From positions 14,638-78,637 of the forward strand of contig CAYVLY010000001.1 in NCBI GenBank assembly GCA_964452565.1: DNA of 64,000 bases, written 5' to 3'. This document shows, in pieces, positions 23,854-50,563 of the stretch. The DNA is from an uncultured Gammaproteobacteria bacterium. GTDB taxonomy: Bacteria > Patescibacteriota > Patescibacteriia > UBA9934. A program made the translations under genes and the position numbers. How positions within the stretch are numbered: the stretch's first letter is position 1; the number at the start of each line of letters is the position of its first letter. Under the pieces are notes generated by a model. The model saw only the letters and a program-made list of their open reading frames with translations. It was not told where the DNA came from and did not search any database.

Positions 23854-24495
23854 TCATTGAGTGTAGACGGTCATCGCTTCTGTGTGCTTGAGTTCTTTCT
23901 TAACACGCTGCATTCGCTGATCAGCACGGTTGATGATCGAAGTCACGGTTTCTTGTGAGGTTTCAGCGATCGCCCATCCGATGCTGGCACTTTGATTGTG
24001 TTCAGTGCCTTCGTTGGTTGTTATCGGAGTTCTGGCGATTGCCTTGTACACCGAGACTGCCAGTCCCTGAGCACGTTCAGGTCCTGGACATGCGAAGAAG
24101 ATGAGAAACTCCTCTCCACCAAAGCGAACCACAAGGTCGCCTGGTCGGGCGGTTATGAGGATGCGTTTGGCTACTTCGCGAAGGACGAAGTTGCCAACAT
24201 CCTGACCAAAGCGCTTGTTGACTTGTCCGAAGTCGTTGATGTCGATGAACAGGACTCCCAGGGAAGTGGAGGCCCTACCCTCGATGACGAACTCAGCGCG
24301 TTTGCGGAAGTGCTCGATCCTCTCTTCCATGCCACGCATGTTGAGTAGACCTGTAAGGAAGTCATGGCGCGCCTCTTTGAAGTACCTGTCCCGCTGGCGT
24401 AGGAGATACAGGCAGAAGATTCCCAGGCAGATCATGACAACCACCTGAACTCCATTCGCAGCCAGAGAGACTTTGAGGTCGATGAGAGTCTCCAT
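23854..24495 (-). CDS. Membrane-anchored GGDEF-domain diguanylate cyclase
   Basis: N-terminal TM helix. RFGGEEFLIFF (GGEEF) active site. Substrate-binding residues DINDFGQVN conserved. Confidence 0.85.
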   Translation of the reverse strand: METLIDLKVSLAANGVQVVVMICLGIFCLYLLRQRDRYFKEARHDFLTGLLNMRGMEERIEHFRKRAEFVIEGRASTSLGVLFIDINDFGQVNKRFGQDVGNFVLREVAKRILITARPGDLVVRFGGEEFLIFFACPGPERAQGLAVSVYKAIARTPITTNEGTEHNQSASIGWAIAETSQETVTSIINRADQRMQRVKKELKHTEAMTVYTQ

Positions 24496-24889
24496 GAGGA
24501 CTCCTTCTGCCCATTGGGCGATGGTAGGTTGAGAAATAGATTTGGGGGAGAAATAAGATGGTACGGTCTAGAAATATAGCAAAAATTAGGGGTTTTGTCA
24601 ATCCTGTGATTTGACAAGTGAAAACGAATCTGCACTGATTTGTACACAGGAACCCCTTTGTTTATTGAGTAATCAAAAGAAAAGTGCTACGATTTAAGTG
24701 GTATAGCTTTATCAAAACAAGATTGCACATTTTAACTTTATCTTTTTACCTGTAGCACACTTTCAAAATACTCAATGTAGCTAAGGCTATATGTCGCATT
24801 TTGCAAGCGCACTACAGGCAAAAATATTTTGTAAAAAGGCGCAACTTTGTTTTGAAAAAGCTAAAAAACAATTATTAACCTATTTTGTT

Positions 24890-26701: not shown

Positions 26702-26739
26702 ACACGTAATGAGCGTGTCTGTTTTATTTTGAGTTCTAA

Positions 26740-26761
26740 CCCCTTCCTTACGAAGGAGGGG
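26740..26761 (+). promoter_or_regulatory. SD/anti-SD hairpin (family D) in 5' leader of the DUF559 gene
   Basis: ccccttcctt-acg-aaggagggg pairs a Shine-Dalgarno-like AAGGAGG with a 16S-3'-end-like CCTCCTT. A second free SD (gataggggagg) follows immediately, before the ATG. Confidence 0.45.
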
Positions 26762-26776
26762 ATAGGGGAGGTTTTC

Positions 26777-27130
26777 ATGACTGAGTTATTTAACAAAAAA
26801 CAAGAAAAAGAGAAGCGGAGGAATTTACGTTTTAATCAGACATTTGCCGAAAAGACAATTTGGTCACATTTAAGGAGAAAACAGTTAGGGGTTCGATTCA
26901 GGAGGCAGTTTGGTATTGGTACTTATGTAGTTGATTTCTACTGCCCAAAGAAATATTTGATCATTGAGATAGACGGGGATACTCATTTTGAAGTTCATCA
27001 GATCGAATATGATCTAAAACGTTCGAAATACTTTGAAAGTCTTGGGATGAAAGTTGTTAGATTTACAAATCAGGAGATATATCAGGATCTTGATAGAGTA
27101 TTGTTAACAATTAGGAATTTAATTAACTAA
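26777..27130 (+). CDS. DUF559 / Vsr-like endonuclease-domain protein
   Basis: YVVDFYCPKKYLIIEIDGDTH ... KVVRFTNQEI, the PD-(D/E)xK very-short-patch-repair-like fold. Start placed after the hairpin; the ORF track starts at 26729. Confidence 0.7.
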   Translation: MTELFNKKQEKEKRRNLRFNQTFAEKTIWSHLRRKQLGVRFRRQFGIGTYVVDFYCPKKYLIIEIDGDTHFEVHQIEYDLKRSKYFESLGMKVVRFTNQEIYQDLDRVLLTIRNLIN

Positions 27131-27218: not shown

Positions 27219-28052
27219 ATGTTCATAATAAAATCAAGTGGAGAGAAGGCTGAGTTTGATCCAGCCAAAGTAAAACGCAGCATGTTGCGCTCAGGTGCAG
27301 ATGAAAAAACTGCAGATGAAGTTCTGAAGGATTTAGAAAAGAAGTTGCACAGTGGCATGACCACAAAGCAAGTCTATAAGATTGTTTTTGACGAGCTTAA
27401 GAATCGAAAGGCGTGTATTGCATGTCGGTATGACCTTCGCAATGCTCTGCTTCGATTGGGCCCGGCTGGTTACAAGTTTGAAAAATACGTTGCATCGATT
27501 TTGAACGCTTATAGTTATGAAGCATTTGTGCCAGAAGAAGAATATGAGGGATCATGCGTGATGCATGAAGTTGATGTTGTAGCAGAGAAGGATCATAGAA
27601 GGATATTTATTGAGGCAAAGTTTCGGAATCGTTTTAACGATTCTGTAAATCTAAAGGACACAATGGCAACATGGGCCCGGTTTCTCGACTTAGTTGATGG
27701 ATCAACTGTTGGCAAGTGTCCACATTTTGATGAGCCATGGATTGTAACTAATGCGAGGTTTTCTGATCGTGCGCGTCAATTTGGCATATGCAAGGGTATA
27801 CATATGATAGGTTGGAATGTTCCAAAGGAAAGAACTTTTGCGCAAATGGTAGATATCAATGCTGTATATCCTGTTACAGTTCTTGATGAATTAACGCAGG
27901 TCGAACTTGATAAGCTATCACATCATGGAATCATGCTTTGTAAGGAAATGTCGGAAATGGATTCAAATGAACTACAAGAAAAGCTTGATATATCTGAGCA
28001 TCGGGTTTTGGAGCTTATGCAAATGTGCTCAGATGTGATAGGGGAGGAATAA
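27219..28052 (+). CDS. ATP-cone domain fused to PD-(D/E)xK (restriction-endonuclease-like) nuclease domain
   Basis: N-terminal FIIKSSGEKAEFDPAKVKRSMLRSGADEK matches the ATP-cone. Central HEVDVVAEKDH...IFIEAKFR provides the D...EAK catalytic triad. Confidence 0.6.
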   Translation: MFIIKSSGEKAEFDPAKVKRSMLRSGADEKTADEVLKDLEKKLHSGMTTKQVYKIVFDELKNRKACIACRYDLRNALLRLGPAGYKFEKYVASILNAYSYEAFVPEEEYEGSCVMHEVDVVAEKDHRRIFIEAKFRNRFNDSVNLKDTMATWARFLDLVDGSTVGKCPHFDEPWIVTNARFSDRARQFGICKGIHMIGWNVPKERTFAQMVDINAVYPVTVLDELTQVELDKLSHHGIMLCKEMSEMDSNELQEKLDISEHRVLELMQMCSDVIGEE

Positions 28053-28103
28053 ATAATTACCATCCCGACGTTAGGACCTGCCTGCCGGCAGGCAGGGGGA
28101 TCC

Positions 28104-28143
28104 CGGCCGGCCTTATGAGATTCGCAGTCGGCCGTTTATTTTC
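28104..28143 (+). terminator. Terminator hairpin with T-run (preceded by family-B palindrome at 28062-28100)
   Basis: cggccg-loop-cggccg-tttattttc. Upstream: catcccgacg...cctgcctgccggcaggcagg. Confidence 0.5.
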
Positions 28144-28200
28144 TACAAAGCATGAACACCCCGTCGAGGCGGGGTGTTGTGTGTACGTTGCTAGTCATTA

Positions 28201-28491
28201 CTAGCAGGTATCTTTCAGGATGAAGAAGAGGGCGTTGTCACTCTCGAGGGCTACATAGTTGGCCAGCATCAGGTTCGAGACGCTCGCGATCAGGTGGGCG
28301 ATAGCCTCGTACTGGTGGGGCTCAAGCCCAGCGACAGTGAAGCCCTCGTTGCCGTTGTTGAGGATCAGTTGACCTTCAGCATCCCTCAGGATGATGCGGC
28401 CCCGGATCTGCTTGTCGAAGCAGATACGACATCCGGCAACTAGCTGCGTGCCCTCGCAACGCAGACTTCCCGTGTCCTTCGTGGTGAGCAT
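28201..28491 (-). CDS. Hypothetical protein, ~58% GC ORFan
   Basis: 96-aa ORF with higher GC than its surroundings. Hairpin acaccccg-tcgag-cggggtgt lies ~25 nt past the stop. No motif recognised. Confidence 0.35.
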   Translation of the reverse strand: MLTTKDTGSLRCEGTQLVAGCRICFDKQIRGRIILRDAEGQLILNNGNEGFTVAGLEPHQYEAIAHLIASVSNLMLANYVALESDNALFFILKDTC

Positions 28492-28601
28492 GGTCGCTCC
28501 TTTCCGGGTTTCATGCCGGAGTTCGGGGTCGAGGTATTCGACGCGTAATATTAGGCGAATTTCGAGATTTTGTCAATAGTTTTAGCTTTGGTGGTAGTTT
28601 G

Positions 28602-28883: not shown

Positions 28884-28925
28884 ACAAAAAAGCATCCGGC
28901 AATAGCTGGGTGTTTTTGTTTTACC

Positions 28926-28960
28926 TGAGGACTGTGCACTGAGCACTGCGTACTGTATAC
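28926..28960 (+). promoter_or_regulatory. Conserved ~35-nt upstream motif (ACTGYGTACTGTRTACT)
   Basis: actgtgcactgagcactgcgtactgtatactatgag, immediately upstream of the 28982 start. Near-identical sequence at 54510-54550 and reverse-complemented at 52951-52988. Confidence 0.4.
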
Positions 28961-28981: not shown

Positions 28982-30334
28982 ATGTCTAAAACAAAAAAAT
29001 CACTAGCGCATGTTGTAGCCGTAAACATGGGATATGGTCATGAACGACCAGCGCACTCACTTCGCCACTTGGCAACAAGAGGTAAAGTTGTGATTGCAAA
29101 TGACTATAATGGAATCCCAGAGGCCGATCAAAAGTTGTGGGAGGATGGTCGTAAGTTGTACGAAAAGATTTCTAGATTTAAGAAAGTTCCGATTCTTGGA
29201 AAAGTTGTTTTTGGAATCATGGATGAGTTACAAAAGATCCCTGAGTTTTATCCGAGACGTGATCTTTCAAAGTCGTCTCTTCAGGTGTGGCAATTTTATC
29301 AATTGATCCGACGTAAGCATTGGATGAAACATTTGATTGATGAGCTTGCAAAAAATCCAAAGCCATTAATCTGCACATTCATGACACCAGCATTTGCGGC
29401 AGAAGAGCATGGATACCCAGGTGAGATTTTTGTACTAGCAACAGATGCAGACATTTCCAGAGCTTGGGCTCCATTACACCCAAAGAAGTCACGTATTAAA
29501 TACCTGGCTCCAACTGGTCGCGTGCAGGAGCGCCTTAAGTTATATGGGGTTCCAGAGGAGAATATCGAACTAACTGGATTTCCACTTCCGATTAGTGCAG
29601 TTGGTGGTCCAGAGCCAAGGGCGATTTATAAAGATCTCGCCCGACGTATTTGCCACCTAGATCCAAAGGGTATATTTCTTCCAAGAGCATCAAAGACATT
29701 AGAGGCTCACATGGGGGTGAAGTTTTGCCCGTCATTGAAAAAGAAGAATGGAAAAGCGATTTCGCTTGCATTTTTAGTAGGGGGAGCTGGTGCACAGCGT
29801 GAGATCGGAGCTACAATAGCGCATAGTCTTAGACGTGAGATTAAGCAGGGTAAGATCAAGTTTACTCTTGTAGCTGGAACTAGACCTGAAGTAGCACAGT
29901 ATTTTGAAGACGCTATTCGAAAAGCTGGATTATCAAAAGAGCGGAAGAAGCAGCAGATCGATGTGCTTTATGAGACAGATCGTCAAAAGTATTTCACTGA
30001 GTTTGAAAAGCAGATTCGATTATTTGATATTATGTGGACTAAGCCGTCTGAAATCTCATTCTATACCGGATTAGGAATTCCGATCATCATGGCCCCAACC
30101 GTTGGGTCGCAAGAGGACTTTAATCGCCAGTGGATTGTGCAGATGGCAGGAGGTATGGAACAGTTTGATCCAAAGTATGCAAATGAATGGCTGTTTGACT
30201 GGATCAACTCCGGGGCACTAGCGCGTATGGCGTGGAATGGATACATTGAAGCACCAACACATGGAGCCTATCGAATTGAAGACGTTGTTGCGGGAAGGCC
30301 AAATACAATTCATGATTTACCGTTGGTGGTTTAG
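28982..30334 (+). CDS. GT28-family glycosyltransferase (MGDG-synthase/MurG-like fold)
   Basis: N-terminal VVAVNMGYGHERPAHSL (G-x-GH-xxA-xxL). C-terminal LAFLVGGAGAQ and GLGIPIIMAPTVGSQEDFNRQWIVQMAGG resemble the GT28 C-domain. Confidence 0.55.
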   Translation: MSKTKKSLAHVVAVNMGYGHERPAHSLRHLATRGKVVIANDYNGIPEADQKLWEDGRKLYEKISRFKKVPILGKVVFGIMDELQKIPEFYPRRDLSKSSLQVWQFYQLIRRKHWMKHLIDELAKNPKPLICTFMTPAFAAEEHGYPGEIFVLATDADISRAWAPLHPKKSRIKYLAPTGRVQERLKLYGVPEENIELTGFPLPISAVGGPEPRAIYKDLARRICHLDPKGIFLPRASKTLEAHMGVKFCPSLKKKNGKAISLAFLVGGAGAQREIGATIAHSLRREIKQGKIKFTLVAGTRPEVAQYFEDAIRKAGLSKERKKQQIDVLYETDRQKYFTEFEKQIRLFDIMWTKPSEISFYTGLGIPIIMAPTVGSQEDFNRQWIVQMAGGMEQFDPKYANEWLFDWINSGALARMAWNGYIEAPTHGAYRIEDVVAGRPNTIHDLPLVV

Positions 30335-30342
30335 CAGCCGAA

Positions 30343-30392
30343 GGTCCTGAGCGACTGAAGGGAGTCGAAGGGAATACAGAACCCAGAATGCA
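30343..30392. repeat. Composite repeat: family-C arm (cctgagcga...gagtcgaaggg) fused to family-A unit (cagaacccagaatgcaga), at left edge of GC-rich island
   Basis: gtcctgagcgactgaagggagtcgaagggaatacagaacccagaatgcaga. Confidence 0.6.
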
Positions 30393-30395
30393 GAT

Positions 30396-30423
30396 AAAAC
30401 CGGTTAAAAAACCGGTTTTTTTG
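30396..30423 (+). terminator. Rho-independent terminator
   Basis: aaaaccgg-ttaaaaa-ccggtttttttg. Confidence 0.7.
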
Positions 30424-30432
30424 TTTAATCTG

Positions 30433-30461
30433 TTGACATTTTTGCTAATGTTTGGTTAAAT
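30433..30461 (+). promoter_or_regulatory. Sigma70-like promoter at start of GC-rich island
   Basis: TTGACA-17 nt-TTAAAT, ~80 nt upstream of ATG 30540, which carries a strong SD AAAGGAGGAGGG. Confidence 0.35.
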
Positions 30462-30539
30462 CACCTGTTCCCACAAACCTTCGTGAGAGGGGCGTGAGTG
30501 GGATTGTACAACCCCAGCCCCCCGAAAGGAGGAGGGACT

Positions 30540-31352
30540 ATGAGAATCATCAGGAAGAGAATGCCCGAAGACTGGGCGCCCGACATTCCGGAATGGATGG
30601 ACCGTGACGATGCGCTCGAGCTCTACTGGCAGGCAGCGCTCAGGCACATGGCTTCGACGATGTTGAAGGTCTTCGCCCTCGGCGTGCTGGCCCCCATCGC
30701 TCTGCTGGTCATGCTCTGGCTCGGCTACAAGGGGATCGAGTGGAACTACAGCCTGTACTCGCTCGATCCGGTCGAGGTCTGCAGTGATGCGGACATGGAG
30801 CTCTGGCGTCACTTCGACCAGGACGGCAAGCGCACCGTGGCATGCATCATGGGTATCAAGCTTGATGACTTCGAGGACGACGTCTACGAGCACGATCTCT
30901 ATTTCTACAGCCAGGCCAAGTCCGACTTCTGGCCCTGGCCTGCGGAAGAGCTCTACTCCGAGAGCTTCGTGGTGCTCGAGACTGGAGAGCAGACCGATAA
31001 GTACCTCGAAGGAGAAGACATCGATCAGTTCATGGCTATGTGTTCAATCGGCGGTGGCGAGCTCATCGCTCGCAGTGGCGGGCAGTTGGAGATCGATGCC
31101 AAGATACTGGAGGGCACCCTCTCGGTCGAGGGCATCCAGCTCCACACCCGTGCTATGACCTGGTGCGAGAGTACCGGCGCCGGCGTTTTCTTCTACAGCG
31201 CTGATGCCCTGCGTCCGATCTGGGTGTGTGAGGGTGACGAGCCTGAGGAGGGTGAGTCGGACGAGCGCGAGTGCGACTGGAAGGTGACGGGCGACGACAA
31301 CAACGCTCAGCATCGCACGGTCGTCTCCGAAGATACGACCAGCGAATCCTAG
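30540..31352 (+). CDS. Hypothetical membrane protein (GC ~60%), island gene 1
   Basis: ATG with a canonical SD; the ORF track starts at 30498. One TM helix (VFALGVLAPIALLVMLWLGY), acidic Cys-containing C-terminal region. Terminator hairpin at ~31370-31420. Confidence 0.5.
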   Translation: MRIIRKRMPEDWAPDIPEWMDRDDALELYWQAALRHMASTMLKVFALGVLAPIALLVMLWLGYKGIEWNYSLYSLDPVEVCSDADMELWRHFDQDGKRTVACIMGIKLDDFEDDVYEHDLYFYSQAKSDFWPWPAEELYSESFVVLETGEQTDKYLEGEDIDQFMAMCSIGGGELIARSGGQLEIDAKILEGTLSVEGIQLHTRAMTWCESTGAGVFFYSADALRPIWVCEGDEPEEGESDERECDWKVTGDDNNAQHRTVVSEDTTSES

Positions 31353-31432
31353 CTGCAGGGCTAGAGGATGTCTACAACAGACACCGCCAAGGGAAGCTCC
31401 CTGTGGCGGTGTTCGTGCTTTTTGGCTAATAC

Positions 31433-31491
31433 TTGATTTATTTGGCGATTAATGTAAAACTAATGCGTCGAATCCGGAACTCAAACCGGCG
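31433..31491 (+). promoter_or_regulatory. Cassette promoter + conserved leader, copy 1
   Basis: TTGATT-16 nt-TAAAAC then leader gcgtcgaatccggaactcaaaccggcg (small hairpin ccgg-aactcaaa-ccgg). 43/45 identical to the copy at 32136-32194. Confidence 0.45.
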
Positions 31492-31513
31492 ACTAGCGGA
31501 TCCAGAGGATCGC

Positions 31514-31981
31514 ATGGGAAATAGCAAGTCCGGACGCATGCCGGCCCACAAGGCACTCATCGAGGGTCTTGACTACTTCATCGGCTGCGGTGGTATCGGT
31601 GAACCCCACAAACACGGCCAGCTCGAAAGGAGCAAGGGTGAGGATTGCGAGGTTCGCGAGGTCAACCATCTCGACGTGCTCGAGCCCTGGGTCAGGTATG
31701 TGATCCTGCCCAACGGCAAGGGTGAGGCACGCGGCATCGCTGAGCAAATCATTGGTCGTCTCGGTGAGCTGCATGAGATGGCGCTCTCCGAGGTATCCAA
31801 GAGCTTGATCTCGGGCATGATCCAGTCCCTGCAGGCCGACTACCTCAAGTCCGACAGCGACGCCGATGGGCACAGCGACAGCCACGTAGGTGAGGATCAC
31901 CTCGGGCCTGGCGAGTGCTCGCCTGGCATGGGGCAGGCTGCTGCGGCCATGATCGAGGACGAGCTCGAGCGGCAGGGCTGA
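31514..31981 (+). CDS. Hypothetical protein (GC ~60%), island cassette gene 2
   Basis: ATG 31514 downstream of the conserved leader. The opposite-strand ORF 31493..32020 has an L/A/V/R-rich composition typical of GC antisense and was rejected. Confidence 0.4.
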   Translation: MGNSKSGRMPAHKALIEGLDYFIGCGGIGEPHKHGQLERSKGEDCEVREVNHLDVLEPWVRYVILPNGKGEARGIAEQIIGRLGELHEMALSEVSKSLISGMIQSLQADYLKSDSDADGHSDSHVGEDHLGPGECSPGMGQAAAAMIEDELERQG

Positions 31982-32002
31982 GCGGCCTCGATCAGCGCGC
32001 AA

Positions 32003-32134
32003 GCGCACTACTACGTACACATCCCCGGTTATCGCGACCGGGGATTGAAGCTTTTTACAGAATGCAGAACCCAGAAGACAGAACCCAGATTGGAGTTTGC
32101 GGGTTCTGGTGTCTGGCGTCTGGGTTCTGTTATG
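32003..32134 (+). repeat. Cassette 3' module copy 1: terminator hairpin + family-A imperfect palindrome (~130 bp)
   Basis: cgcactactacgtacacat-ccccggttatcgcgaccgggg-attgaagcttttt then cagaacccagaagacagaacccagat-tggagtttg-cgggttctggtgtctggcgtctgggttctgttatg. >95% identical to 32652-32782. Confidence 0.75.
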
Positions 32135-32135
32135 C

Positions 32136-32194
32136 TTGACTTATGATCCGGCTAATGTAAAACTAACACGTCGAATCCGGAACTCAAACCGGCG
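32136..32194 (+). promoter_or_regulatory. Cassette promoter + conserved leader, copy 2
   Basis: TTGACT-16 nt-TAAAAC plus leader ...cacgtcgaatccggaactcaaaccggcgg. Confidence 0.45.
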
Positions 32195-32232
32195 GCAGGA
32201 AATTCATGAAGTGGCAAATAGGAGGAGAAAGC

Positions 32233-32640
32233 ATGGAATTTCAAGGTGGGCATTGGGATGTCACAGTTCTGTTAAAGGGACTGAGCGAGAGTGACGGCTT
32301 GGTGGGAATAGATCCGCGTATCGATACCTGTACAGGTCCCGAAGCCGGTACGTTGGAGGTAGTATGTTGCCTCTTGGGAACAGAACGCATTCCCAGGGAT
32401 CAGCTGTTGGGGTCAGTTCCGATTATGGTCCACTATCTTGAGCGTCTTATTGATGTGGCGATTGCAGAGAGAACCAAGTTGAAGCTTCTGCAAGAGATCC
32501 ACATCCTGCGTGATCAATGCGCACGGGCAGGCTTGGTGATTCTCACTGGGATCATCGATGACACTTTGAACTCTCTCAAGCTCAAGATCGCGGGTTGTGG
32601 TGAGGTCCGTTGCCATCGACATCGCAGAGGCCTTGGCTGA
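32233..32640 (+). CDS. Hypothetical protein (GC ~58%), island cassette gene 3
   Basis: ATG 32233 with SD AGGAGGAGAAAGC. No recognisable motif. Confidence 0.4.
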   Translation: MEFQGGHWDVTVLLKGLSESDGLVGIDPRIDTCTGPEAGTLEVVCCLLGTERIPRDQLLGSVPIMVHYLERLIDVAIAERTKLKLLQEIHILRDQCARAGLVILTGIIDDTLNSLKLKIAGCGEVRCHRHRRGLG

Positions 32641-32651
32641 TACACCCTGCG

Positions 32652-32782
32652 CGCACTACTACGTACACATCCCCGGTCATCGCGACCGGGGATTGAAGCT
32701 TTTTACAGAATGCAGAACCCAGAAGACAGAACCCAGATTGGAGTTTGCGGGTTCTGGAGTCTGACGTCTGGGTTCTGTTATG
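32652..32782 (+). repeat. Cassette 3' module copy 2 (terminator hairpin + family-A palindrome); right edge of GC-rich island
   Basis: Near-identical to 32003-32134. Its end overlaps an extended -10 (TGATAAAAT) for uvrD. Confidence 0.75.
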
Positions 32783-32798
32783 ATAAAATGCACAAGCT

Positions 32799-34895
32799 AT
32801 GAGCGAGTTTGTTTTATCCCCAAAACCAACAAAAGACCTAAAAATCGACTATGCAAATGATCTGAATGATCAGCAGTTTGATGTTGTACAGCAGGGTGAC
32901 GGCCCTGTTTTAGTGTTAGCAGGCGCTGGATCGGGTAAGACTCGCACTATTACTTATCGAGTGGCATGGCTCCTTGAACACGGTGTACAGCCAAACAATA
33001 TTTTGCTTTTGACATTTACAAATAAAGCAGCTCGAGAAATGATTTCACGCGTTGAAGGCTTGCTGGGCGACTCAGCTCAGGGTCTGTGGGCTGGAACATT
33101 TCACTCAGTAGCAAATCGACTACTTCGAAAGTACGCACCGAAATTAGGGTTTGAATCTAACTTTTCGATATTGGATCAAGAAGACTCGCGCGACCTTATC
33201 TCTTTGTGTGTTAAAGAGCTCAAGATCGATACAAAAGCTAAACGATTTCCATCAGCTAGAGTTTTGCAGGAGATCTTATCGTATTCTAGAAACTCGGGTA
33301 TATCGATTCCTGAAATGGTTGAGACGCGTCGACCGCATTTTGTAGCGCTTGTAAATGACATTACAGCTGTTGCCGATGCATACGAAGCTTACAAAAAGGT
33401 AAATAACTCAATGGACTTTGATGATCTGCTTTTGAAACTCTTGATGTTATTGGAAATCGATCCACAGGTCCGCGAGCGTTTAGCATCACAATTCCAATAC
33501 GTTTTAGTCGACGAGTTTCAAGATACCAATCATATCCAAGCGCGGATTGTGCAATGGCTTTCAAGCGTACATAGGAATATCTTTGTTGTTGGAGACGATG
33601 CACAGAGCATTTATTCGTTCCGCGCGGCTGATATTCAGAACATTTTGCAATTTCCAAACTCGTTTCATGATACAAAAACTTTTCATCTGACTCGTAATTA
33701 TCGATCAACTCCGCAGATTTTGGATATTGCAAACGATGTTATCGCATACAACACAAAACAGTTTGAGAAAAACCTCGAAGCAATGGCTGAGAGTGGTGAG
33801 GCTCCGCAGTTTGTTCCAGCCAATAGTCAAGGTCAGGAGGCGCATTATATTGTTGATCAAATATCAAAATTGCAACTACGAGGTGAATCACCAACTGAGA
33901 TCGCAGTTTTGTTCCGTGCTGCGTTTCACTCGCAGGCTTTGGAGTTCGAACTTATGCGGCGGGACATTTCTTATGAGTACCGCGGTGGTTTGAAGTTTTT
34001 CGAGCGCGCACATGTTAAGGATGCTATTGCTCATCTTAGATTGATTCACAATACAAAGGATGTATCTGCTTGGATGCGAGCTCTTAGGATTCATCCAGGG
34101 ATTGGAATGGTAACAGCGCAAAAGATTGCTCAGGCTGCATCAGAAGTTGATTATATTGACACAGTTTTCGAAATCATGCCTGTGAAAGGTGCAAAAGCTC
34201 TCCAAGGTTGGCAGTTATTTTTGAATTTATTGCGCGAGTTGCGATCGTCACTTCAAACTCCAGCTGATTATATTCGAGCACTTGCAGGATCAGGCACCTA
34301 TAAGGACTATTTAGAACATGAGTATCCAAATGCACCAGAGCGCTTGGATGATCTAGAGCAGTTCATCACCTTTGCAGAGCAGTATACTGATCTTCAAAGT
34401 TTTCTTGATGATGTGGCGCTTACACAAGAGTATGGTCAAGACGATGATCAGGATGTTTCAGATCGAATTATTTTATCAACCGTGCATCAGGCAAAGGGCC
34501 TTGAGTGGAACCATGTCTTTGTGATCAATGTCGCAGAAGGTGCTTTTCCGCATAAGAACTGCTCGTCTGATGAGGAGATCGAAGAGGAGCGTCGATTGTT
34601 CTATGTAGCTATAACACGTGCACGCAGCCAATTATATCTGACTTATCCAATGACAAGTGGTAGAGGCTATGACTATCAGCAGCATTCGATGTTTATTGAT
34701 GAAATCGAGGATAATCGATTAGATCGAGTTCAGCTTAAGACTTCTGGGCTTCGATTCAGCCAAGGCTTGAAGCAAAGATCAAACTCTGACAAGATGTACG
34801 ATGAACCTACAATTGTTCTTAGTGATGATGGGGAGGTTATAAGTCGGCCAAAACCAGCGTCATTTTTAAAAGATGTAGATGATTTGGGATGGTGA
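32799..34895 (+). CDS. uvrD: UvrD/PcrA-family ATP-dependent DNA helicase
   Basis: Motif I AGAGSGKTRTITYR, Ia LLLTFTNKAAREM, II VDEFQDTN, and C-terminal helicase motifs. 698 aa. Confidence 0.9.
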   Translation: MSEFVLSPKPTKDLKIDYANDLNDQQFDVVQQGDGPVLVLAGAGSGKTRTITYRVAWLLEHGVQPNNILLLTFTNKAAREMISRVEGLLGDSAQGLWAGTFHSVANRLLRKYAPKLGFESNFSILDQEDSRDLISLCVKELKIDTKAKRFPSARVLQEILSYSRNSGISIPEMVETRRPHFVALVNDITAVADAYEAYKKVNNSMDFDDLLLKLLMLLEIDPQVRERLASQFQYVLVDEFQDTNHIQARIVQWLSSVHRNIFVVGDDAQSIYSFRAADIQNILQFPNSFHDTKTFHLTRNYRSTPQILDIANDVIAYNTKQFEKNLEAMAESGEAPQFVPANSQGQEAHYIVDQISKLQLRGESPTEIAVLFRAAFHSQALEFELMRRDISYEYRGGLKFFERAHVKDAIAHLRLIHNTKDVSAWMRALRIHPGIGMVTAQKIAQAASEVDYIDTVFEIMPVKGAKALQGWQLFLNLLRELRSSLQTPADYIRALAGSGTYKDYLEHEYPNAPERLDDLEQFITFAEQYTDLQSFLDDVALTQEYGQDDDQDVSDRIILSTVHQAKGLEWNHVFVINVAEGAFPHKNCSSDEEIEEERRLFYVAITRARSQLYLTYPMTSGRGYDYQQHSMFIDEIEDNRLDRVQLKTSGLRFSQGLKQRSNSDKMYDEPTIVLSDDGEVISRPKPASFLKDVDDLGW

Positions 34896-34946: not shown

Positions 34947-35303
34947 ATGACGAGATGGCAGCCATATCACAAGCTAGTAGCATACAAAGAGGCAGATGCA
35001 TTTTTGAAGAAAGTCTATGGGGCGACTGCATGTTTTCCAAAATCGGAAATGTATAATTTGACATCGCAGTTTAGAAGAGCAGCGCTGTCTGTCGTTTTGA
35101 ATATAGTAGAAGGTCAGGCAAGGGGTTCTAAGGCAGATATGAGAAGGTTCCTGTTTATATCCAGAGGTTCATTAGCTGAGTGCGCTTACCTACTAGAATT
35201 TTCTCGAGAAATAGGATATATAGATGCCAGTAAATACGAGGAGTTGGAGTCACAAAGGCGTAAAGCTGGATATCTTTTGCAAAGACTGGTTGATAGCCTC
35301 TAA
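34947..35303 (+). CDS. Four-helix-bundle protein (TIGR02436 / Avd-like, '23S rRNA intervening-sequence protein' family)
   Basis: YKLVAYKEADAFLKKVY ... NLTSQFRRAALSVVLNIVEGQARGS ... FLFISRGSLAECAYLLEF is the characteristic family pattern. Flanked by short inverted repeats (tgataagaggt) at 34891-34941 and 35301-35345. Confidence 0.8.
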   Translation: MTRWQPYHKLVAYKEADAFLKKVYGATACFPKSEMYNLTSQFRRAALSVVLNIVEGQARGSKADMRRFLFISRGSLAECAYLLEFSREIGYIDASKYEELESQRRKAGYLLQRLVDSL

Positions 35304-37356: not shown

Positions 37357-39498
37357 ATGTCAGAAACATTAAGAAAACGACTTACATCCTATCTTGGCAT
37401 TGCGGTCATTGCTATGATGGTGTTTGGCGTTCTAGCTTCAACCTTCCAGGTGCCGACAGCGAGGGCAGTTGCAGGTGACGGAGCATCAAGTGCTATAACA
37501 TTACTTGATACAAATGCAAACGGAAAACTTGACCGAATTACATTTAGTGTTGCAAATCCAAACACAGAAACCTGGTCATTGACAGGAGCCTCACCTAATG
37601 GATTTTCAGTAACTGACGATGGTGCAGATATTACTATTACTACAGTTTCAATTACATCTGCAGCTGATGCTAACCCAGTTCTCGTGCAGGTAAATCTTGA
37701 TGAGTCAGATACGGACTTAAGTGTAGATACAGCCAATACAGGTGCAACTGGATTGGAGCTTATCTATACTCAGGGGAATTTAGGGTCAAACTGTGTGGCT
37801 CAGGCTTGTCTAACAGATGACACAGATGAAGAGCTTAATGTTATAGCAACTGGGGATAGCGGCGGAACGGATACAGAGGCAGATGGTGCCGCACCGCAGA
37901 TTGCGTCATTCTCATATGCTGATGGTGGAACAGGAGATGGAAAGGTGAGTGCAATGACTGTTACATTTACTGAGACTCTTGATACAGCATCAGTCTTGGG
38001 AGCAAATGATCTCACTTTTACTAATGTTGGAGATTTTACAGCAGCAGCTTTTGGAAGTGATGCAACAGATCTGGTAACGTCTGGTGTTTCTAGTGTTACT
38101 GTGACATTAGGTACAGGTTCAACAGCAGTGGATACTCGTGAAAATTCTGGAACAATCGCTGTTAGTTCACAAAATTTATTCTCACTAACAGATGGGACTA
38201 CTGCCAACACCACACTGGGAGCTCAGACGCAGGCAACATTCCTAGATACAATGAAACCAGTTATAACCTCAACTACACCAACAGATGCTTCCTCAGTACA
38301 GTCACGAACAAATGCACTTGTTTGGAACTTCTCAGAGGCTATGGCTACTGCCGGAGGATGGACAGAGGGTGCAGCTGCAGCTGCTGAGTTTGAGGCATCT
38401 CCAGATCCAGGAGGATGGGGAACTCCAGCATGGAGTAACAGTGACAAGACGGTTACTATCTCTCACGCACCATTCTTGTGTATTACAGATTACACAATGA
38501 CAACCGACGATACTCAAATCAATGCTGCAAACGGTGAAAGCGGATTTGTAGCGCTTAATGATGCGGCCACAACTCCAGTAGGTGTTGCATCAACCTTCAC
38601 AACAATGTCTTGTGGAACAGCATCAACATCTGCGGCTGAAGATACAGAGACAACCTACGAAATAGATGTTCTTACACCAAACGGCGGCGAAACTCTTACA
38701 GAAGGTGAAGAGTATGAGATCACATGGGAAGCAGATCCTGAAGGAGAATATTACATTGATCTTTACTATCTAGACGGCGAGGATTACGTGGAGATTGCAA
38801 CACAAGAAACAAACGATGGATCGTACACATGGGAGGTCCCAGCAGATGTTGAGGATTCATTAGTGAAAGTTGTATGGACAGACCTCGCAGATGAGCTAGA
38901 TTCAGATACATCAGATGCTGATTTTAATGATACAGACGGAGTTAGCGAAGCTGAAGAAGAGGAAGTAGCAGACGAAGAAGAGGAAGTAGCAGACGCTGAA
39001 GCAGCAGAAGCACCATCTGGAACAGGAATATCTCCTGTGACAGGTGAAGAAGAAGAGATAACAGCTGTAGAACCAGGAGATTTCATCACAAGCCCTTCAT
39101 TCTCTACTGTCTACTATGTAACAGAAGACTTTGAACGAAGAGCGTTCATAAGTTCAGCAGTATTCTTCACATATGCTGATTCATACGATGAAATCAAGGA
39201 TGTAACAGATGCAACACTTACAGCATTAACTCTTGGAGACAACATGCTTCCAAACCCAGGAGTAGTACTAGTGAAAGTACAGTCTGATGCTAAGACATAT
39301 GCTGTAGATGACAGCTATAACCTAAGATGGATTACATCTGAGGAAGTAGCAGAAGATCTATACGGAACAGACTGGGCAGATTACATCATTGATATAGAAG
39401 CAACATTCTTTGCATCATTTGGAGCAGGAGACGATGTTGATTCAACTGATGACCTTACCGTGGGTGATATGAAGACACGGGAGGAAGTCTCACAATAA
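37357..39498 (+). CDS. Large secreted surface protein, paralog 1 of tandem family (beta-sandwich repeats, acidic linker, conserved C-terminal module)
   Basis: Signal peptide MSETLRKRLTSYLGIAVIAMMVFGVLASTFQVPTARA. Shares an N-terminal region with the 41750 gene and a Kre9/KNH-like small beta module (GEEYEITWEADPEGEYYIDLYY...GSYTWEVP). Its E-rich linker and C-terminal module are identical over ~100 aa to the 39626 gene. Confidence 0.75.
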   Translation: MSETLRKRLTSYLGIAVIAMMVFGVLASTFQVPTARAVAGDGASSAITLLDTNANGKLDRITFSVANPNTETWSLTGASPNGFSVTDDGADITITTVSITSAADANPVLVQVNLDESDTDLSVDTANTGATGLELIYTQGNLGSNCVAQACLTDDTDEELNVIATGDSGGTDTEADGAAPQIASFSYADGGTGDGKVSAMTVTFTETLDTASVLGANDLTFTNVGDFTAAAFGSDATDLVTSGVSSVTVTLGTGSTAVDTRENSGTIAVSSQNLFSLTDGTTANTTLGAQTQATFLDTMKPVITSTTPTDASSVQSRTNALVWNFSEAMATAGGWTEGAAAAAEFEASPDPGGWGTPAWSNSDKTVTISHAPFLCITDYTMTTDDTQINAANGESGFVALNDAATTPVGVASTFTTMSCGTASTSAAEDTETTYEIDVLTPNGGETLTEGEEYEITWEADPEGEYYIDLYYLDGEDYVEIATQETNDGSYTWEVPADVEDSLVKVVWTDLADELDSDTSDADFNDTDGVSEAEEEEVADEEEEVADAEAAEAPSGTGISPVTGEEEEITAVEPGDFITSPSFSTVYYVTEDFERRAFISSAVFFTYADSYDEIKDVTDATLTALTLGDNMLPNPGVVLVKVQSDAKTYAVDDSYNLRWITSEEVAEDLYGTDWADYIIDIEATFFASFGAGDDVDSTDDLTVGDMKTREEVSQ

Positions 39499-39520
39499 AA
39501 TCTGACATAGATTAAAAGTA

Positions 39521-39548
39521 AAAACCCCCGCTCTTGCGGGGGTTTTTG
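39521..39548 (+). terminator. Rho-independent terminator
   Basis: aaaacccccgc-tctt-gcgggggttttt. Confidence 0.7.
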
Positions 39549-39583
39549 TATCCACACATTAACTCAAGCGCAAGTGAATATCT

Positions 39584-39592
39584 TGTTATAAT
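39584..39592 (+). promoter_or_regulatory. Extended -10 element (TGtTATAAT) upstream of paralog 2; same motif at 41723-41731 upstream of paralog 3
   Basis: cttgTTATAATgat is duplicated in front of both downstream paralogs. Confidence 0.35.
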
Positions 39593-39625
39593 GATCAATG
39601 AAGTATTACTCTGAACCACCAACTT

Positions 39626-41671
39626 ATGTTGAAAATTCTATCAGGAAGTTTTTTTGCGATCATACTGTGTATGATCTGGTTTGTATTGCCAGCAGGAAAT
39701 GCTCATGCTGCAAATGCAATTTCGGCAAAGGTATGGATAGATGCAGATGCAGATGGGACAGTCGATCACATCAAGCTTACCTGGGATGCAAACATTACCC
39801 AGTGTACTTATGAAGCAGGGGATTGGACGGTTAATAATGCCAGTCCCCTGACCATTGCGATTACTGGAATTAATACTTCCGATCCAGAAGGGAATGGCGA
39901 TGGAGCCTGTGACGGAAACGATGCAGTTATTTATGTATCTGTCACAGCAGACGCTGGTGAGACAAGCTCTGGAGCTGCTCCAGTTATTTCATATACTAAT
40001 CAGGGAACAGCTAATTCACTTCAAGACTCCGGCGTTATTACAAACAAGCCGAGTATTTCATGTCTAGACGGGGCTCCCCCGCAAATAATCACAGCTAAAT
40101 ATTCAGATCTAGACGCAGACGGAATGATTGATCAGTTTACAATTGATTTTTCAGAGGTTCTGGTTGCGGCATCTGTTTTAGCGGCAGATAATCTCACATT
40201 AACAAATGTAGGAGATTTCACTTCTGCGGCATTTGGAAGCAGTACAACTGATTTAATTACAGGCGTTGTCGGTAATGCAAATGTGACACTTGGCACTGAG
40301 GCGTCTGTCAAAGATACGTTTGAAGGTTCTAGTAATATTGCTATTACAACGGTAGATGGAAACGCAGCTTTTACATTAGAAGATACAAATGGGAACATAA
40401 ATACAACTCCAAAGCTAGAGACGCAGATTACTTTTGAGGACAATGCTAAGCCAATTATTACAAGTGTGACTCCAGATGTAGGCTCTGTTGCTCAATCAAG
40501 AACAGACGCGTTTGTATGGAATTTTTCAGAGCAAATAGATTCATCAGGGGGTTGGGTAAGTGGCGCCGAGTTTTTACCAATACAATCTATAAGTGGCTTT
40601 GGAGCCGCTGTTTGGAGTAATAGCGATACAACAGTAACTATCACACATGCACCACTATTATGTGTAACTAACTATGTTATCGATACTATACCCATGGAGA
40701 TTGATGCTGTTAATGGCAGTGTTGGGTATACACAGCTGCAACCAGGTTTTGGTATGGATTTCACAACCATGTCCTGTTCCACAGATTCAGACTCAGATTC
40801 ATCAACAGCAGTTGAGGTGACCTATGACATCGAGGTACTCACACCAAACGGGGGCGAGACTCTAACAGAAGGTGAAGAGTATGAGGTCACATGGGAAGCA
40901 GATCCTGAAGGTGAGTATTATATTGATCTTTACTACCTAGACGGCGAGGATTATGTAGAGATTGCTACACAAGAAGCAAATGATGGATCATACACATGGG
41001 AAGTGCCAGAGGGTGTCGAAGATTCGATGATTAAGGTTATATGGAATGATTTGGCCGATGAGTTAGATTCAGACACGTCAGATTCAGTATTTAATGCAAC
41101 CGAGGATGCTACTGATACAGATGATGATGCTGATACAACCGATGATGAAGACACCACTGAGGACGCAGACGAAGAGGCAGCAGAAGCACCATCTGGAACA
41201 GGAATATCTCCTGTGACAGGTGAAGAAGAAGAGATTACAGCTGTAGAAGCAGGTGACTTCATCACAAGCCCTTCATTCTCTACTGTCTACTATGTAACAG
41301 AAGACTTTGAGAGACGAGCATTCATTAGCTCAGCAGTATTCTTCACATATGCTGATTCATACGATGAGATCAAAGATGTAACAGATGCAACGCTTACAGC
41401 ATTAACACTGGGTGACAACATGCTTCCAAATCCAGGAGTAGTACTAGTTAAAGTGCAATCTGATGCTAAGACGTATGCTGTGACTAGTGATTCTCAGCTC
41501 GGGTGGATTGAGAGCGAGGACGATGCCATTGAGATTTATGGAGAGGATTGGGCGGATTATGTTATTGACATCGAATCTGTTTTCTTTGGTCAATTTACGA
41601 TCGGAGACGATGTTGATGACCCAGAAGATGTTGAGCTTATCGAAATGAAGACACGTGAGTCCTTACAATAG
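39626..41671 (+). CDS. Large secreted surface protein, paralog 2
   Basis: Signal peptide MLKILSGSFFAIILCMIWFVLPAGNAHA. 40830-41470 is ~85-90% nt-identical to 38660-39300 in paralog 1 (gene conversion). Confidence 0.75.
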   Translation: MLKILSGSFFAIILCMIWFVLPAGNAHAANAISAKVWIDADADGTVDHIKLTWDANITQCTYEAGDWTVNNASPLTIAITGINTSDPEGNGDGACDGNDAVIYVSVTADAGETSSGAAPVISYTNQGTANSLQDSGVITNKPSISCLDGAPPQIITAKYSDLDADGMIDQFTIDFSEVLVAASVLAADNLTLTNVGDFTSAAFGSSTTDLITGVVGNANVTLGTEASVKDTFEGSSNIAITTVDGNAAFTLEDTNGNINTTPKLETQITFEDNAKPIITSVTPDVGSVAQSRTDAFVWNFSEQIDSSGGWVSGAEFLPIQSISGFGAAVWSNSDTTVTITHAPLLCVTNYVIDTIPMEIDAVNGSVGYTQLQPGFGMDFTTMSCSTDSDSDSSTAVEVTYDIEVLTPNGGETLTEGEEYEVTWEADPEGEYYIDLYYLDGEDYVEIATQEANDGSYTWEVPEGVEDSMIKVIWNDLADELDSDTSDSVFNATEDATDTDDDADTTDDEDTTEDADEEAAEAPSGTGISPVTGEEEEITAVEAGDFITSPSFSTVYYVTEDFERRAFISSAVFFTYADSYDEIKDVTDATLTALTLGDNMLPNPGVVLVKVQSDAKTYAVTSDSQLGWIESEDDAIEIYGEDWADYVIDIESVFFGQFTIGDDVDDPEDVELIEMKTRESLQ

Positions 41672-41682
41672 AAAGTATAAAT

Positions 41683-41725
41683 AATAAGCACCGAGTGTCC
41701 ACAGGGCATTAGGTGCTTATTTTGT
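41683..41725 (+). terminator. Terminator hairpin
   Basis: aataagcacc-19 nt loop-ggtgcttatttt. Confidence 0.55.
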
Positions 41726-41749
41726 TATAATGATTAAAGATTACGGCCT

Positions 41750-48028: not shown

Positions 48029-48040
48029 CCCGCGTTATCT

Positions 48041-48068
48041 CGACTGGGTTCTGTGTTCTGGGTTCTGA
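48041..48068. repeat. Family-A repeat copy (reverse orientation) followed by bidirectional terminator hairpin ccacgcc-tcaagg-ggcgtgg (48081-48100)
   Basis: gactgggttctgtgttctgggttctg is the reverse complement of cagaacccagaacacagaacccagtc. Adjacent to the GC-rich pentapeptide-repeat gene. Confidence 0.6.
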
Positions 48069-48126
48069 AAAGCATTGAACCACGCCTCAAGGGGCGTGGT
48101 TTCGCGTACGTGCTGGCTCTCCAGCA

Positions 48127-48867
48127 CTAGTCGATCAGTTCGAGGCGCTTGTGCCGATGAGCGTCTGGGTCCCACTTGAACAGGATCGCGCCGCGCGTGT
48201 TGGCTTCATCGAAGTCGCGTTGGTACATCCGAGCTCCGGCCAGTTTGGCGCGCACGAGCTCGGTCTCGAAGTTGAACCGGGCGCCGCACATGTTAGCATC
48301 CTCAAGGCTAGCATTGGTGAGGTCCGTACCACGCAAGTCCTGCGTGCCCAGATGGAGGCCGTCGAGCTTGCAGCCCTGCAGGTCCGCATCAGGCGGGAGC
48401 CTGCTGCCAGAGGCGATCCCGCGCAGGTCTGCACCAGCCAGTCTTGCTTGCGCAAAGTTCTCGTCGATGCATACGCCCTTGAGGATTGCCCATTGCATGG
48501 TTGTTTTATCGAGCGAGGCATCACGGAAGCTCGCGTTGGTCAGGTCGGCCTCCATCAGCGTGGCGCCGTCGAGCGTTGCACGATCGAAGATCGTTCCGTG
48601 GCACTTGGCGCCGGTAAGATGCGCGCCAGTCAGGTCAGATCCGAAAAGGTTCATGCCTGAGATGTCGATCCCGCTGAGGTCGATGCCGCGCAGCCGATTG
48701 GTACCGATCCCACGGCCCTTGAAGTCGATCTCACAGTCTGGGTTGAGATGCCGGAAGCGGTTGAACCAATCAGCACCATGCTTATTGACCATGCTTGCGA
48801 AGTTGGGCAGGTCCTTGCGATACCGGGCCTTTCTTTCGTCTGGGGACTTGAAGCGGTCTTTCCTCAT
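48127..48867 (-). CDS. Pentapeptide-repeat protein (GC ~60%)
   Basis: Consecutive A(D/N)LxG pentapeptides (ADLTNASFRDASLDKT...AGADLRGIASG...). Plus-strand ORFs 48151..48660 and 48176..48925 have R/S/A-rich antisense composition and were rejected. Confidence 0.7.
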   Translation of the reverse strand: MRKDRFKSPDERKARYRKDLPNFASMVNKHGADWFNRFRHLNPDCEIDFKGRGIGTNRLRGIDLSGIDISGMNLFGSDLTGAHLTGAKCHGTIFDRATLDGATLMEADLTNASFRDASLDKTTMQWAILKGVCIDENFAQARLAGADLRGIASGSRLPPDADLQGCKLDGLHLGTQDLRGTDLTNASLEDANMCGARFNFETELVRAKLAGARMYQRDFDEANTRGAILFKWDPDAHRHKRLELID

Positions 48868-49001
48868 GTGCGTTCCTTGTCTTGTCTTTGGGTTTTTCTT
48901 GGCTGAGGATAGCGCTCTCTCGTAAAACGATACGAGTTTTTAAGCTATCACAAAGAAGGGCTTTTGTCAATCCCGCTCTGGTACGTTAAACTATATGCAT
49001 T

Positions 49002-50476: not shown

Positions 50477-50482
50477 ATGAGT

Positions 50483-50550: not shown

Positions 50551-50563
50551 TTCGCGAGTTAGG

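Follow-up and report, generated by a model that had tools for sequence, protein, structure and literature searches.

We analyzed a GC-rich block at positions 30343-32798 of a 64-kb stretch of DNA (the window, from whose first letter all positions are counted) that was read from the 709-kb contig CAYVLY010000001.1 of an uncultured member of the Patescibacteriota. The block is situated between a DUF6938/GT28-like gene on its left (28982-30334) and uvrD on its right (32799-34895), and its GC content is 55.8%, compared with 56.1% for all GC-rich islets of the window pooled (see below) and 42.6% for the remaining window. A first-pass annotation had put the contrast at 58-60% against about 40%; the contrast holds, with figures that were slightly overstated. 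Three plus-strand coding open reading frames (ORFs), designated A, B, and C, are located in the block (Table 1), and none of them matched any entry in Pfam, PHROG, or PADLOC, which bears out their earlier description as three ORFan genes. The GC contents at the first, second, and third codon positions (GC1/GC2/GC3) are 0.60/0.39/0.80 for ORF A and 0.67/0.41/0.77 for ORF B, compared with 0.56/0.35/0.37 for uvrD. Judged by GC content per codon position, A and B are clearly real genes with a foreign-looking codon usage, and the long antisense ORFs that also appear here are a by-product of the high GC3.

Each of the units A, B, and C carries its own σ70-type promoter (TTGAYN-16/17-TAnAAn) and its own predicted terminator hairpin. 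The modular anatomy that had been described (promoter and leader, ORF, 3′ unit) is real, and the individual promoters are borne out; the units also possess terminators of their own, unlike integron cassettes. The supposed copy of the palindrome unit at the left border of the block proved to comprise just 2.5 heptads and not a palindrome. Two independent Logan contigs (run SRR8146440) confirm how the islet is joined to the core genes, and they break within the two 3′ units, as is expected because the 3′ unit is a repeat. Since these contigs cross the core/islet junctions, an assembly chimera is ruled out.

Table 1. Positions of features in the block next to uvrD and of the other GC-rich islets in the window (SD, Shine-Dalgarno; UTR, untranslated region).
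Feature	Position	Strand	Remarks
2.5 CAGAACC-type heptads	30376-30392	+	CAGAACC CAGAATG CAGATAA; 3′ of DUF6938/GT28-like gene; no palindrome
Terminator of DUF6938 gene	30396-30419	+	A-tract/T-tract, core-genome style
Unit A promoter	30433-30461	+	TTGACA-17-TTAAAT, then ~78-nt GC-rich 5′UTR
ORF A	30540-31352	+	270 aa; GC3 0.80; one predicted membrane helix; Cys-containing C-terminal domain
Unit A 3′ hairpin plus tail	31381-31424	+	GTTCGTGCTTTTT; kept in L129 and L131; one compensatory pair
Unit B promoter	31433-31460	+	TTGATT-16-TAAAAC
Unit B leader	31467-31513	+	Two hairpins
ORF B	31514-31981	+	155 aa; predicted helical; GC3 0.77
3′ unit, copy 1	32003-32134	+
Unit C promoter plus leader hairpin 1	32136-32196	+	TTGACT-16-TAAAAC; other SD region in place of hairpin 2
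ORF C	32233-32640	+	135 aa (144 aa from alternative start 32206); GC3 0.54
3′ unit, copy 2	32651-32782	+	Distal arm overlaps uvrD promoter CTGACG-17-TAAAAT (32761-32789)
Islet	8168-8811		161-aa orphan
Islet	10150-11468		399-aa membrane/coiled-coil orphan
Islet	23935-24540		GGDEF protein
Islet	27983-28584	-	96-aa orphan ORF 28201-28491; 24-nt 3′ hairpin identical in L132, loop included
Islet	47885-48888		Pentapeptide-repeat protein
Islet	50475-50804		74-aa two-helix membrane peptide

The spacer next to uvrD in related Patescibacteria

The DUF6938 protein has thousands of homologs, and the few for which a source is named are labelled Patescibacteria, Parcubacteria, or Uhrbacteria. In L123, a relative's locus whose DUF6938 protein is 86% identical to that of the window, the DUF6938 gene is followed by one plus-strand GC-rich C-type ORF and then uvrD. 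L129/L130 (~90% identity by eye, over a 108-residue C-terminal fragment) contain the 3′ end of the DUF6938 gene, a homolog of A, and a homolog of B. The DUF6938 flank is absent from the L131 contig, which holds homologs of A and B, heptad arrays of other sequence, and uvrD. In L132 (75%), the DUF6938 gene is inverted and one B-type unit immediately precedes uvrD; between its L28 gene and an ATP-cone gene, L132 has another GC-rich islet, as does the window. The spacer is empty and ~130 bp long in L126-L128 (72%), while in L137 (73%) a ~130-bp spacer separates uvrD from a 184-aa ORF, itself followed by the DUF6938 gene. L124/L125 (74%) carry two unrelated ORFs of normal GC content. The contents next to uvrD therefore range over A-B-C, A-B, C only, B only, and none, and this presence/absence comparison of sister loci confirms that spacer content differs between relatives. 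Free mobility of the units, as the cassette idea would have it, is not supported, given their location at the same chromosomal position in relatives, from which it follows that they are mainly inherited in place. On the evidence of synteny, the spacer appears to be a variable hot spot whose contents are orthologous and, in the main, vertically inherited.

The orientation of the DUF6938/GT28-like gene separates these genomes as well. In the window as well as in L123, L133, and L136, it is co-directional with the L28 gene and uvrD; in more distant relatives (L124-L128, L132, and L137) it is inverted, and this single-gene inversion marks the subclade. An automatic gene call on the Logan contig at L123 1853-2374 is antisense to the true plus-strand gene, a gene that possesses an SD sequence and the conserved leader and is homologous to C; automatic calls easily go wrong at the high-GC3 genes of these genomes.

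Relationship between ORFs B and C

The first-pass annotation had treated B and C as different ORFs, and BLASTP of B against C found nothing. In L123, however, the lone ORF that separates uvrD from the DUF6938 gene (L123_C) is 30% identical to ORF C, and through it the two families can be connected. A hidden Markov model (HMM) of the four-member B family recovered the L123 C-type protein with E = 3.6e-7, the best decoy among 8,963 six-frame ORFs reaching E = 3.2, and the C HMM recovered L132_B with E = 0.002. Comparison of the B and C profiles (both small) with hhalign gave a probability of 81% and E = 1.3e-5 in an alignment that is collinear across 93 columns. In Smith-Waterman comparisons, L123_C reached z-scores of 14 with the window C and of 4-10 with every B member, and the window B and C share 24% of residues in the alignment. 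These comparisons, which cover six sequences and are transitive via L123_C, identify the supposedly different ORFs as diverged paralogs: by sequence, B and C are distant, old tandem paralogs that belong to one family of small, predicted helical proteins. The B/C ORFs must be old because C groups with the L123 protein and not with B.

Just two homologs of ORF A were found among 1.84 billion representatives (38-39% identity by HMMER, 34-36% in alignments), and both sit at the syntenic locus of relatives. The corresponding search with ORF B returned its self-match alone. In L131 and L132 the B ortholog immediately precedes uvrD; in L129 it follows the A homolog, and the contig ends inside it. AlphaFold2 models of A (pLDDT 55.9, from a three-sequence alignment) and B (pLDDT 56.4, from a single sequence) were too poor for fold searches, and PDB profile searches with the A and B families gave chance-level matches only. 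Phage records, plasmid records, and PHROGs yielded no match.

A second case of tandem paralogs is present in the window at 37357-43813, where three ~2.17-kb genes (713, 681, and 687 aa) contain stretches that are 70-92% identical.

Conserved leader of units B and C

The leader copies at 31429-31491 and 32132-32194 are 84% identical, and their final 25 nt are fully identical. Leader hairpin 1 is a two-tier structure (GTCG-AAT-CCGG-loop-CCGG-CGAC; 31467-31493) near the predicted 5′ end of the transcript. Hairpin 2 (GCGGATCC-AGA-GGATCGC; 31496-31513; GCGAU...AUCGC) encloses the SD sequence and abuts the AUG; it is missing in C. A covariance model built from six leaders scored the two copies at 84 and 63 bits in a scan of the window, and the next match at 12 bits. 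Because the model finds just two window copies, the leader can be assigned to the B/C family and is no border of islets in general. The earlier proposal of a repeated leader module consequently stands for B and C, and its extension to a general cassette border does not, as the window contains no copy beyond these two.

In the relatives, the leader is found upstream of B/C-type ORFs in L123, L129, L131, and L132. Hairpin 1 is identical between B and C of the window, and a second type of this hairpin occurs in L123 and L131. Type 1 accompanies B-type ORFs in the window and in L132 and the C-type ORF of the window; type 2 accompanies a B-type ORF in L131 and a C-type ORF in L123. Since all four leader/ORF combinations exist, recombination between leaders and ORFs has happened, and within-genome gene conversion followed by differential loss could produce all four.

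Searches for the exact 23-25 nt of the leader and for degenerate promoter-plus-leader patterns gave 0 matches in JGI metagenomes and IMG/VR. No Rfam model reached its gathering threshold in the window, and 30300-32850 contained just two chance-level matches (E about 0.1). A likeness of the leader to the 5′UTR of the islet gene 28201-28491 was considered and rejected, as they have just ACGCGTCGAAT in common and the leader model does not detect it.

The 3′ units and their heptad palindrome

The two 3′ unit copies differ at 3 of 132 positions; their identity had been given as >95% and is 98% as measured. Each comprises, in order, the motif CTACTACGTACAC, a GC hairpin (32023-32043 in copy 1), the tail ATTGAAGCTTTTT, and a 75-nt palindrome, which in copy 1 (32057-32131) is composed of five nnCAGAA heptads facing five TCTGGnn heptads. 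The hairpin CCCCGGTYATCGCGACCGGGG has exactly two occurrences in the window, and the 3′ hairpin pattern had 0 matches in IMG/VR. The predicted fold of the unit, a long and imperfect hairpin interrupted by internal loops, has a free energy of -55.6 kcal/mol (z = -5.7 relative to shuffled sequences). An attC site carries the core sites R′ (GTTRRRY) and R″ (RYYYAAC) at the ends of its palindrome, together with extrahelical bases and bottom-strand folding. Neither core site is present in 31985-32140 or 32641-32800, and without them no attC register can be defined in the fold. The description of the palindrome as attC-like is therefore not supported, and the heptad motif is a generic one.

The palindrome is absent in L123, and L131 and L132 have heptads of unrelated sequence. 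The 3′ regions of these three relatives have strongly diverged from the 3′ units of the window, so that the architecture alone is common to them. The 3′ units are thus 98% alike within the window and strongly diverged from those of relatives, while the ORFs between them are old, which argues for concerted evolution.

CAGAACC-type heptads are located elsewhere in the window at 11866-11928 and 48043-48067. A scan with CAGAACCCAGANNNCAGAACCCAGA against one genome per species found (CAGAACC)n heptads in at least 120 contigs of many phyla, mostly as pure arrays among the matches listed. From this distribution, the heptad palindrome appears to be the local form of a heptamer repeat that is present in many phyla. 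Heptamer direct repeats have been described in intergenic regions, with the unit TAACTGA in Beggiatoaceae, Cyanobacteria, and Bacteroidetes (PMC4679880), and heptanucleotide elements are known from Geobacter (PMC2700814). These published repeats resemble ours in being short arrays of 7-nt units, often near start codons, that occur across phyla and have no known function (PMC4679880, PMC2700814); they differ in that five heptads here face five inverted ones to give a 75-nt hairpin. That the ORFs arose de novo out of heptad arrays can be dismissed, as the coding regions show period 3 only and no period-7 signal.

Among the matches listed, pure (CAGAACC)n arrays and arrays that mix CAGAACC, CAGAACT, and CGGAACC are intergenic in many unrelated groups, among them Vibrio, Photobacterium, Opitutales, Acidobacteriota, Bacteroidota, Nitrospirota, and Saccharibacteria. 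Period-7 intergenic repeats of the window comprise a CAGAACC/CTGCGTT palindrome (11865-11928), CTGAGCA (28925-28955), CTGGGTT (48044-48067), AGTATGC (52963-52993), and CTGTGTA (54514-54546), and several of them immediately precede ordinary genes (dnaB, the DUF6938 gene, and a gene for an amino-acid permease). In the relatives, spacers between islets and core genes contain the heptads GGTGATN, CTGCCTA, TAGGTCN, TACTTTY, and ACCCTTT (L131 1440-1610; L132 380-500 and 1215-1335; L133 700-830); the islet-unit spacers have kept the heptad habit but not the repeated word.

Substitution rates and base composition

Substitution rates were estimated by Nei-Gojobori counting. For the full-length DUF6938 gene and uvrD, the proportion of synonymous differences (pS) is 0.71-0.81 even for the closest relatives, corresponding to more than 2 synonymous substitutions per site (dS > 2), and the number of nonsynonymous substitutions per site (dN) is 0.10-0.24. 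By comparison, dN in the A, B, and C families is 0.42-0.90 between orthologs (30-51% protein identity) and 0.98 between B-type and C-type; islet proteins evolve about 3-6 times faster than the neighboring genes. Non-coding elements have changed far less than the islet proteins: the short 5′ and 3′ hairpins are near-invariant, and the promoter and 5′UTR of unit A are about 70% identical between the window and L129.

The GC-richness of the units persists across these distances. B-type genes have a GC3 of 0.74-0.92 in four lineages, compared with 0.33-0.41 for neighboring genes, although the values can differ between orthologs (0.54 for the window C vs 0.92 for L123_C; 0.80 for the window A vs 0.61 for the L129 A homolog). 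At four-fold degenerate sites the fraction of C is 0.40 in islets vs 0.10 in core genes, and the fraction of NNY codons that end in C is 0.69 vs 0.28. Synteny suggests in-place inheritance of the units; in that case, the trace left by one ancient transfer should have faded.

Other GC-rich islets of the window

At least nine GC-rich single-gene units, namely A, B, C, and six further islets, make up 10.7% of the sequence of the window. The six further islets have 53-58% GC and are situated between core genes; each contains one gene, on either strand, with its own TTGACA-type promoter, and two of these genes encode known domains (GGDEF and pentapeptide repeats), the remaining four being orphans. 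All nine islet genes share one terminator style, a GC hairpin followed by a GTTCAnTGCTTT-like tail, whereas core genes have A-tract/T-tract terminators instead. The motif ACGTACRC precedes the hairpin in four islets, and all four window occurrences of this 8-mer are at such sites. An intrinsic terminator consists of a GC-rich hairpin and a subsequent U-run. The islet hairpins are strong, with a U-run that is interrupted or displaced (ATTGAAGCTTTTT, GTTCATGCTTTGT), and a simple terminator scan calls the hairpin at 28155-28178 alone. Alignment of the islet 3′ hairpins with MAFFT/RNAalifold gave no consensus structure, the stems being too variable to align; their common motifs were found by pattern search.

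The promoter of the islet gene 28201-28491, TTGACAAAATCTCGAAATTCGCCTAATAT (28548-28576, minus strand), closely resembles the promoter of the L28 gene of L136, TTGACAAAATCTCGCCATTTCGTTATCAT (851-879, plus strand), and L136 lacks this islet. From the similarity of the two sequences, it looks as if an inverted copy of its neighbor's promoter drives the islet gene. Elsewhere in the window, inverted copies of a 39-nt terminator hairpin (97% complementary; 51290-51328 and 52009-52047) flank an acidic 209-aa ORF without a Pfam match (51376-52005) between rplU and recR. Small stand-alone genes of the DUF559 (Vsr-like), 23S_rRNA_IVP/bAvd-like, and GIY-YIG types lie between core genes at 26729-27130, 34947-35303, and 55811-56110. 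They are accompanied by the short GC-rich palindromes CTAACCCCTTCCTTACGAAGGAGGGGATAGGGGAGG and CCTGCCTGCCGGCAGGCAGG, which recur in the window (26736, 27175, 61030, and 61067; 25265, 28077, and 61536) and in L133.

Interpretation and alternative explanations

We consider it probable that the block is a variable spot next to uvrD that holds three autonomous, moron-like units, of which B and C are tandem paralogs with homogenized flanks. This explanation builds on the anatomy, synteny, paralogy, and rate contrasts, all of which were shown. Each unit would consist of a σ70-type promoter, a structured 5′UTR, an orphan ORF that is GC-rich and evolves fast, and a terminator formed by a GC hairpin. 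We infer that the near-identical flanks of B and C arose when the tandem units recently underwent non-allelic gene conversion or unequal crossing-over with each other, processes that the long heptad palindrome may assist, and that the same homology-driven duplication, deletion, and exchange could account for presence and absence among relatives; a site-specific recombinase would not be needed. The 3′ unit may terminate transcription and, as a stable hairpin, insulate the promoter that follows, and leader hairpin 2 is likely to occlude the ribosome-binding site.

Several observations weigh against this explanation or parts of it. The leaders of L123 and L131 are identical across 54 nt despite a uvrD dS of ~2.7 and differing ORF types, which hints at exchange between lineages, for which in-place inheritance and gene conversion would be insufficient. 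Pairing in the leader is kept in 97% of cells, with 0 compensatory double changes among 6 sequences; an RNA role of the leader is plausible from its predicted fold, and a DNA operator fits the data equally well. Inheritance of paralogs in place also leaves a GC3 of 0.74-0.92 beside neighbors at 0.33-0.41 unexplained. Finally, the copy counts of leader and 3′ unit cover 64 kb of the 709-kb contig.

The main rival explanation differs chiefly in the origin it assigns to the GC-richness. The units would be foreign morons, repeatedly imported or replaced from an unsampled GC-rich plasmid, phage, or host pool by homologous recombination that makes use of the neighboring genes or of the conserved leader and 3′ elements, and their GC content would be that of the donor. 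The C-ending codon usage does resemble that of a GC-rich genome, the nine islet genes share a terminator style unlike that of core genes, the GC3 differences between orthologs of C and of A are as expected from unequal residence times, the identical 54-nt leader occurs in the distant L123 and L131, and islands acquired by horizontal gene transfer (HGT) are common in Patescibacteria (PMC12455944). Yet no donor was found: the only two A homologs among the 1.84 billion representatives are from syntenic loci of the candidate phyla radiation (CPR), B matched only itself, and phage records, plasmid records, and PHROGs contained no match. Moreover, A/B/C-type units adjoin uvrD in every lineage that has them, and the neighboring genes show no mosaic GC content. 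We regard import as unlikely, though a serious contender. The GC-richness could alternatively have arisen in place through a long-lasting local process (GC-biased gene conversion [gBGC] at recombination hot spots, targeted mutagenesis, or selection for GC-rich mRNAs tuned to RNase or Rho) that also produced the fast divergence. Such a process would explain why B-type GC3 is still 0.74-0.92 in four lineages beside saturated neighbors (pS 0.71-0.81) and why islet dN reaches 0.42-0.98 compared with 0.10-0.24 for the full-length neighbors, and conserved 5′ and 3′ hairpins would fit selection at the mRNA level. A purely mutational process, however, would have to spare the conserved UTRs within the same transcripts, and the evidence comes from a handful of loci. 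Reported effects of gBGC amount to a few percent of GC3, and we know of no local GC-favoring process of such strength in bacteria; this explanation is decidedly unlikely. A more general proposal takes in all dispersed single-gene units of a Patescibacteria clade, ~10% of the window here, with their GC3 of roughly 0.8-0.9 and fast-evolving ORFs between near-invariant hairpins, and ascribes them either to an undescribed local GC-favoring diversification or gene-conversion process or to continuous modular exchange with an unseen GC-rich replicon, in which case the hairpin modules would be portable recombination or expression borders. The pattern of GC content and rates is drawn from a handful of loci, and we hold this proposal to be quite unlikely.

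The two mechanisms that had originally been suggested fare worse. In an integron, the IntI tyrosine recombinase, attI, and the promoter Pc lie beside the array, and the mostly promoterless cassettes are expressed from Pc. A site-specific cassette system of this kind, with the 3′ palindrome as its recombination site, would be in keeping with an imperfect palindrome 3′ of both B and C, with the variable number of units among relatives, and with the topology [3′ unit][leader]-C-[3′ unit], which is what insertion of a circular unit at a 3′ unit would give. It is very improbable given that the 3′ units lack R′ and R″, promoters and terminators are part of each unit, relatives are without the palindrome (L123) or have unrelated heptads (L131, L132), the heptad motif is generic, and B and C are paralogous. 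As already noted in the first-pass annotation, the window contains no integrase, and integrase, transposase, reverse transcriptase, and recombinase domains were all absent from the sizeable ORFs of the 64 kb. Miniature inverted-repeat transposable elements (MITEs) and repetitive extragenic palindromic (REP) elements are characterized by many dispersed copies, and by terminal inverted repeats and target-site duplications. That the 3′ unit plus leader is such a mobile repeat, landed twice, is barely credible: its long structure is reminiscent of a terminal palindrome, its two copies are 98% identical, and heptad palindromes occur at intergenic positions 11866-11928 and 48018-48067, but these other sites share the generic heptamer only and not the unit. 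In the window the full unit is found just twice, both times at the homologous place beside a tandem paralog, with no target-site duplication visible at its borders and no match in the viral or metagenome collections scanned. What survives of the proposed cassette shuffling is the recombination of leaders with ORFs and the variable content of the spacer; the attC, integron, or MITE mechanism does not, as there are no core sites and no recombinase in the window.

If the conservative explanation with tandem paralogs is correct, the locus provides a clean example of tandem paralogs whose homogenized non-coding flanks mimic mobile cassettes. Neighboring ORFans may be paralogs that have diverged beyond pairwise detection, which calls for caution in the calling of cassettes and islands in metagenome-assembled genomes. 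Compositional deviance is usually read as a fading trace of HGT, and here it persists at syntenic loci across species despite synonymous saturation of the neighboring genes. Should the pattern hold genome-wide, it would point either to a hidden GC-rich gene pool that feeds CPR genomes or to a local evolutionary regime that is undescribed in bacteria, and would in addition identify a set of fast-evolving genes, possibly for host interaction, in organisms of largely unknown biology.

Comparison with known systems

The units invite comparison with the morons of lambdoid phages (Hendrix/Juhala), which are reportedly single genes of deviant composition, equipped with their own promoter and terminator, between conserved genes. 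Promoter-gene-terminator units of deviant composition between conserved genes are also what we observe, but in a bacterial chromosome with housekeeping neighbors (uvrD, L28, clpB, and dnaB among others), with neither a prophage context nor a PHROG match, and inherited at the same position across species. With integron cassettes the units have in common short ORFs that are each followed by an imperfect palindrome, and a number that differs among relatives. They differ from them in the absence of attC cores and, in the window, of IntI and attI, in having promoters and terminators, in the paralogy of their ORFs, and in a palindrome that is not kept. The minimal mobile elements of Neisseria (Saunders and Snyder) are said to place variable content between conserved flanking genes by way of homologous recombination. 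Different content between the same conserved genes, without mobility genes, is likewise found here; the contents, however, are related (the A and B/C families) and are not unrelated alternatives.

In Patescibacteria, compositionally deviant genomic islands have been attributed to HGT (PMC12455944). The GC-deviant segments described here similarly amount to about a tenth of the sequence, yet they are single genes without a detectable donor that are syntenic and have remained GC-rich despite saturated neighbors. In the lpl cluster of Staphylococcus aureus (PMC2568036) and the immunity arrays of type VII secretion systems (PMC9484751), tandem paralogs are joined by a conserved unit that spans the 3′ end of one gene, the intergenic region, and the 5′ end of the next. 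Near-identical junctions and divergent ORF bodies are common to those clusters and to units B and C, and in the clusters homologous recombination drives gain, loss, and shuffling (PMC2568036, PMC9484751). At the uvrD locus, by contrast, the conserved parts are purely non-coding, the ORFs have diverged almost beyond detection, and the composition is alien to that of the surrounding genome.

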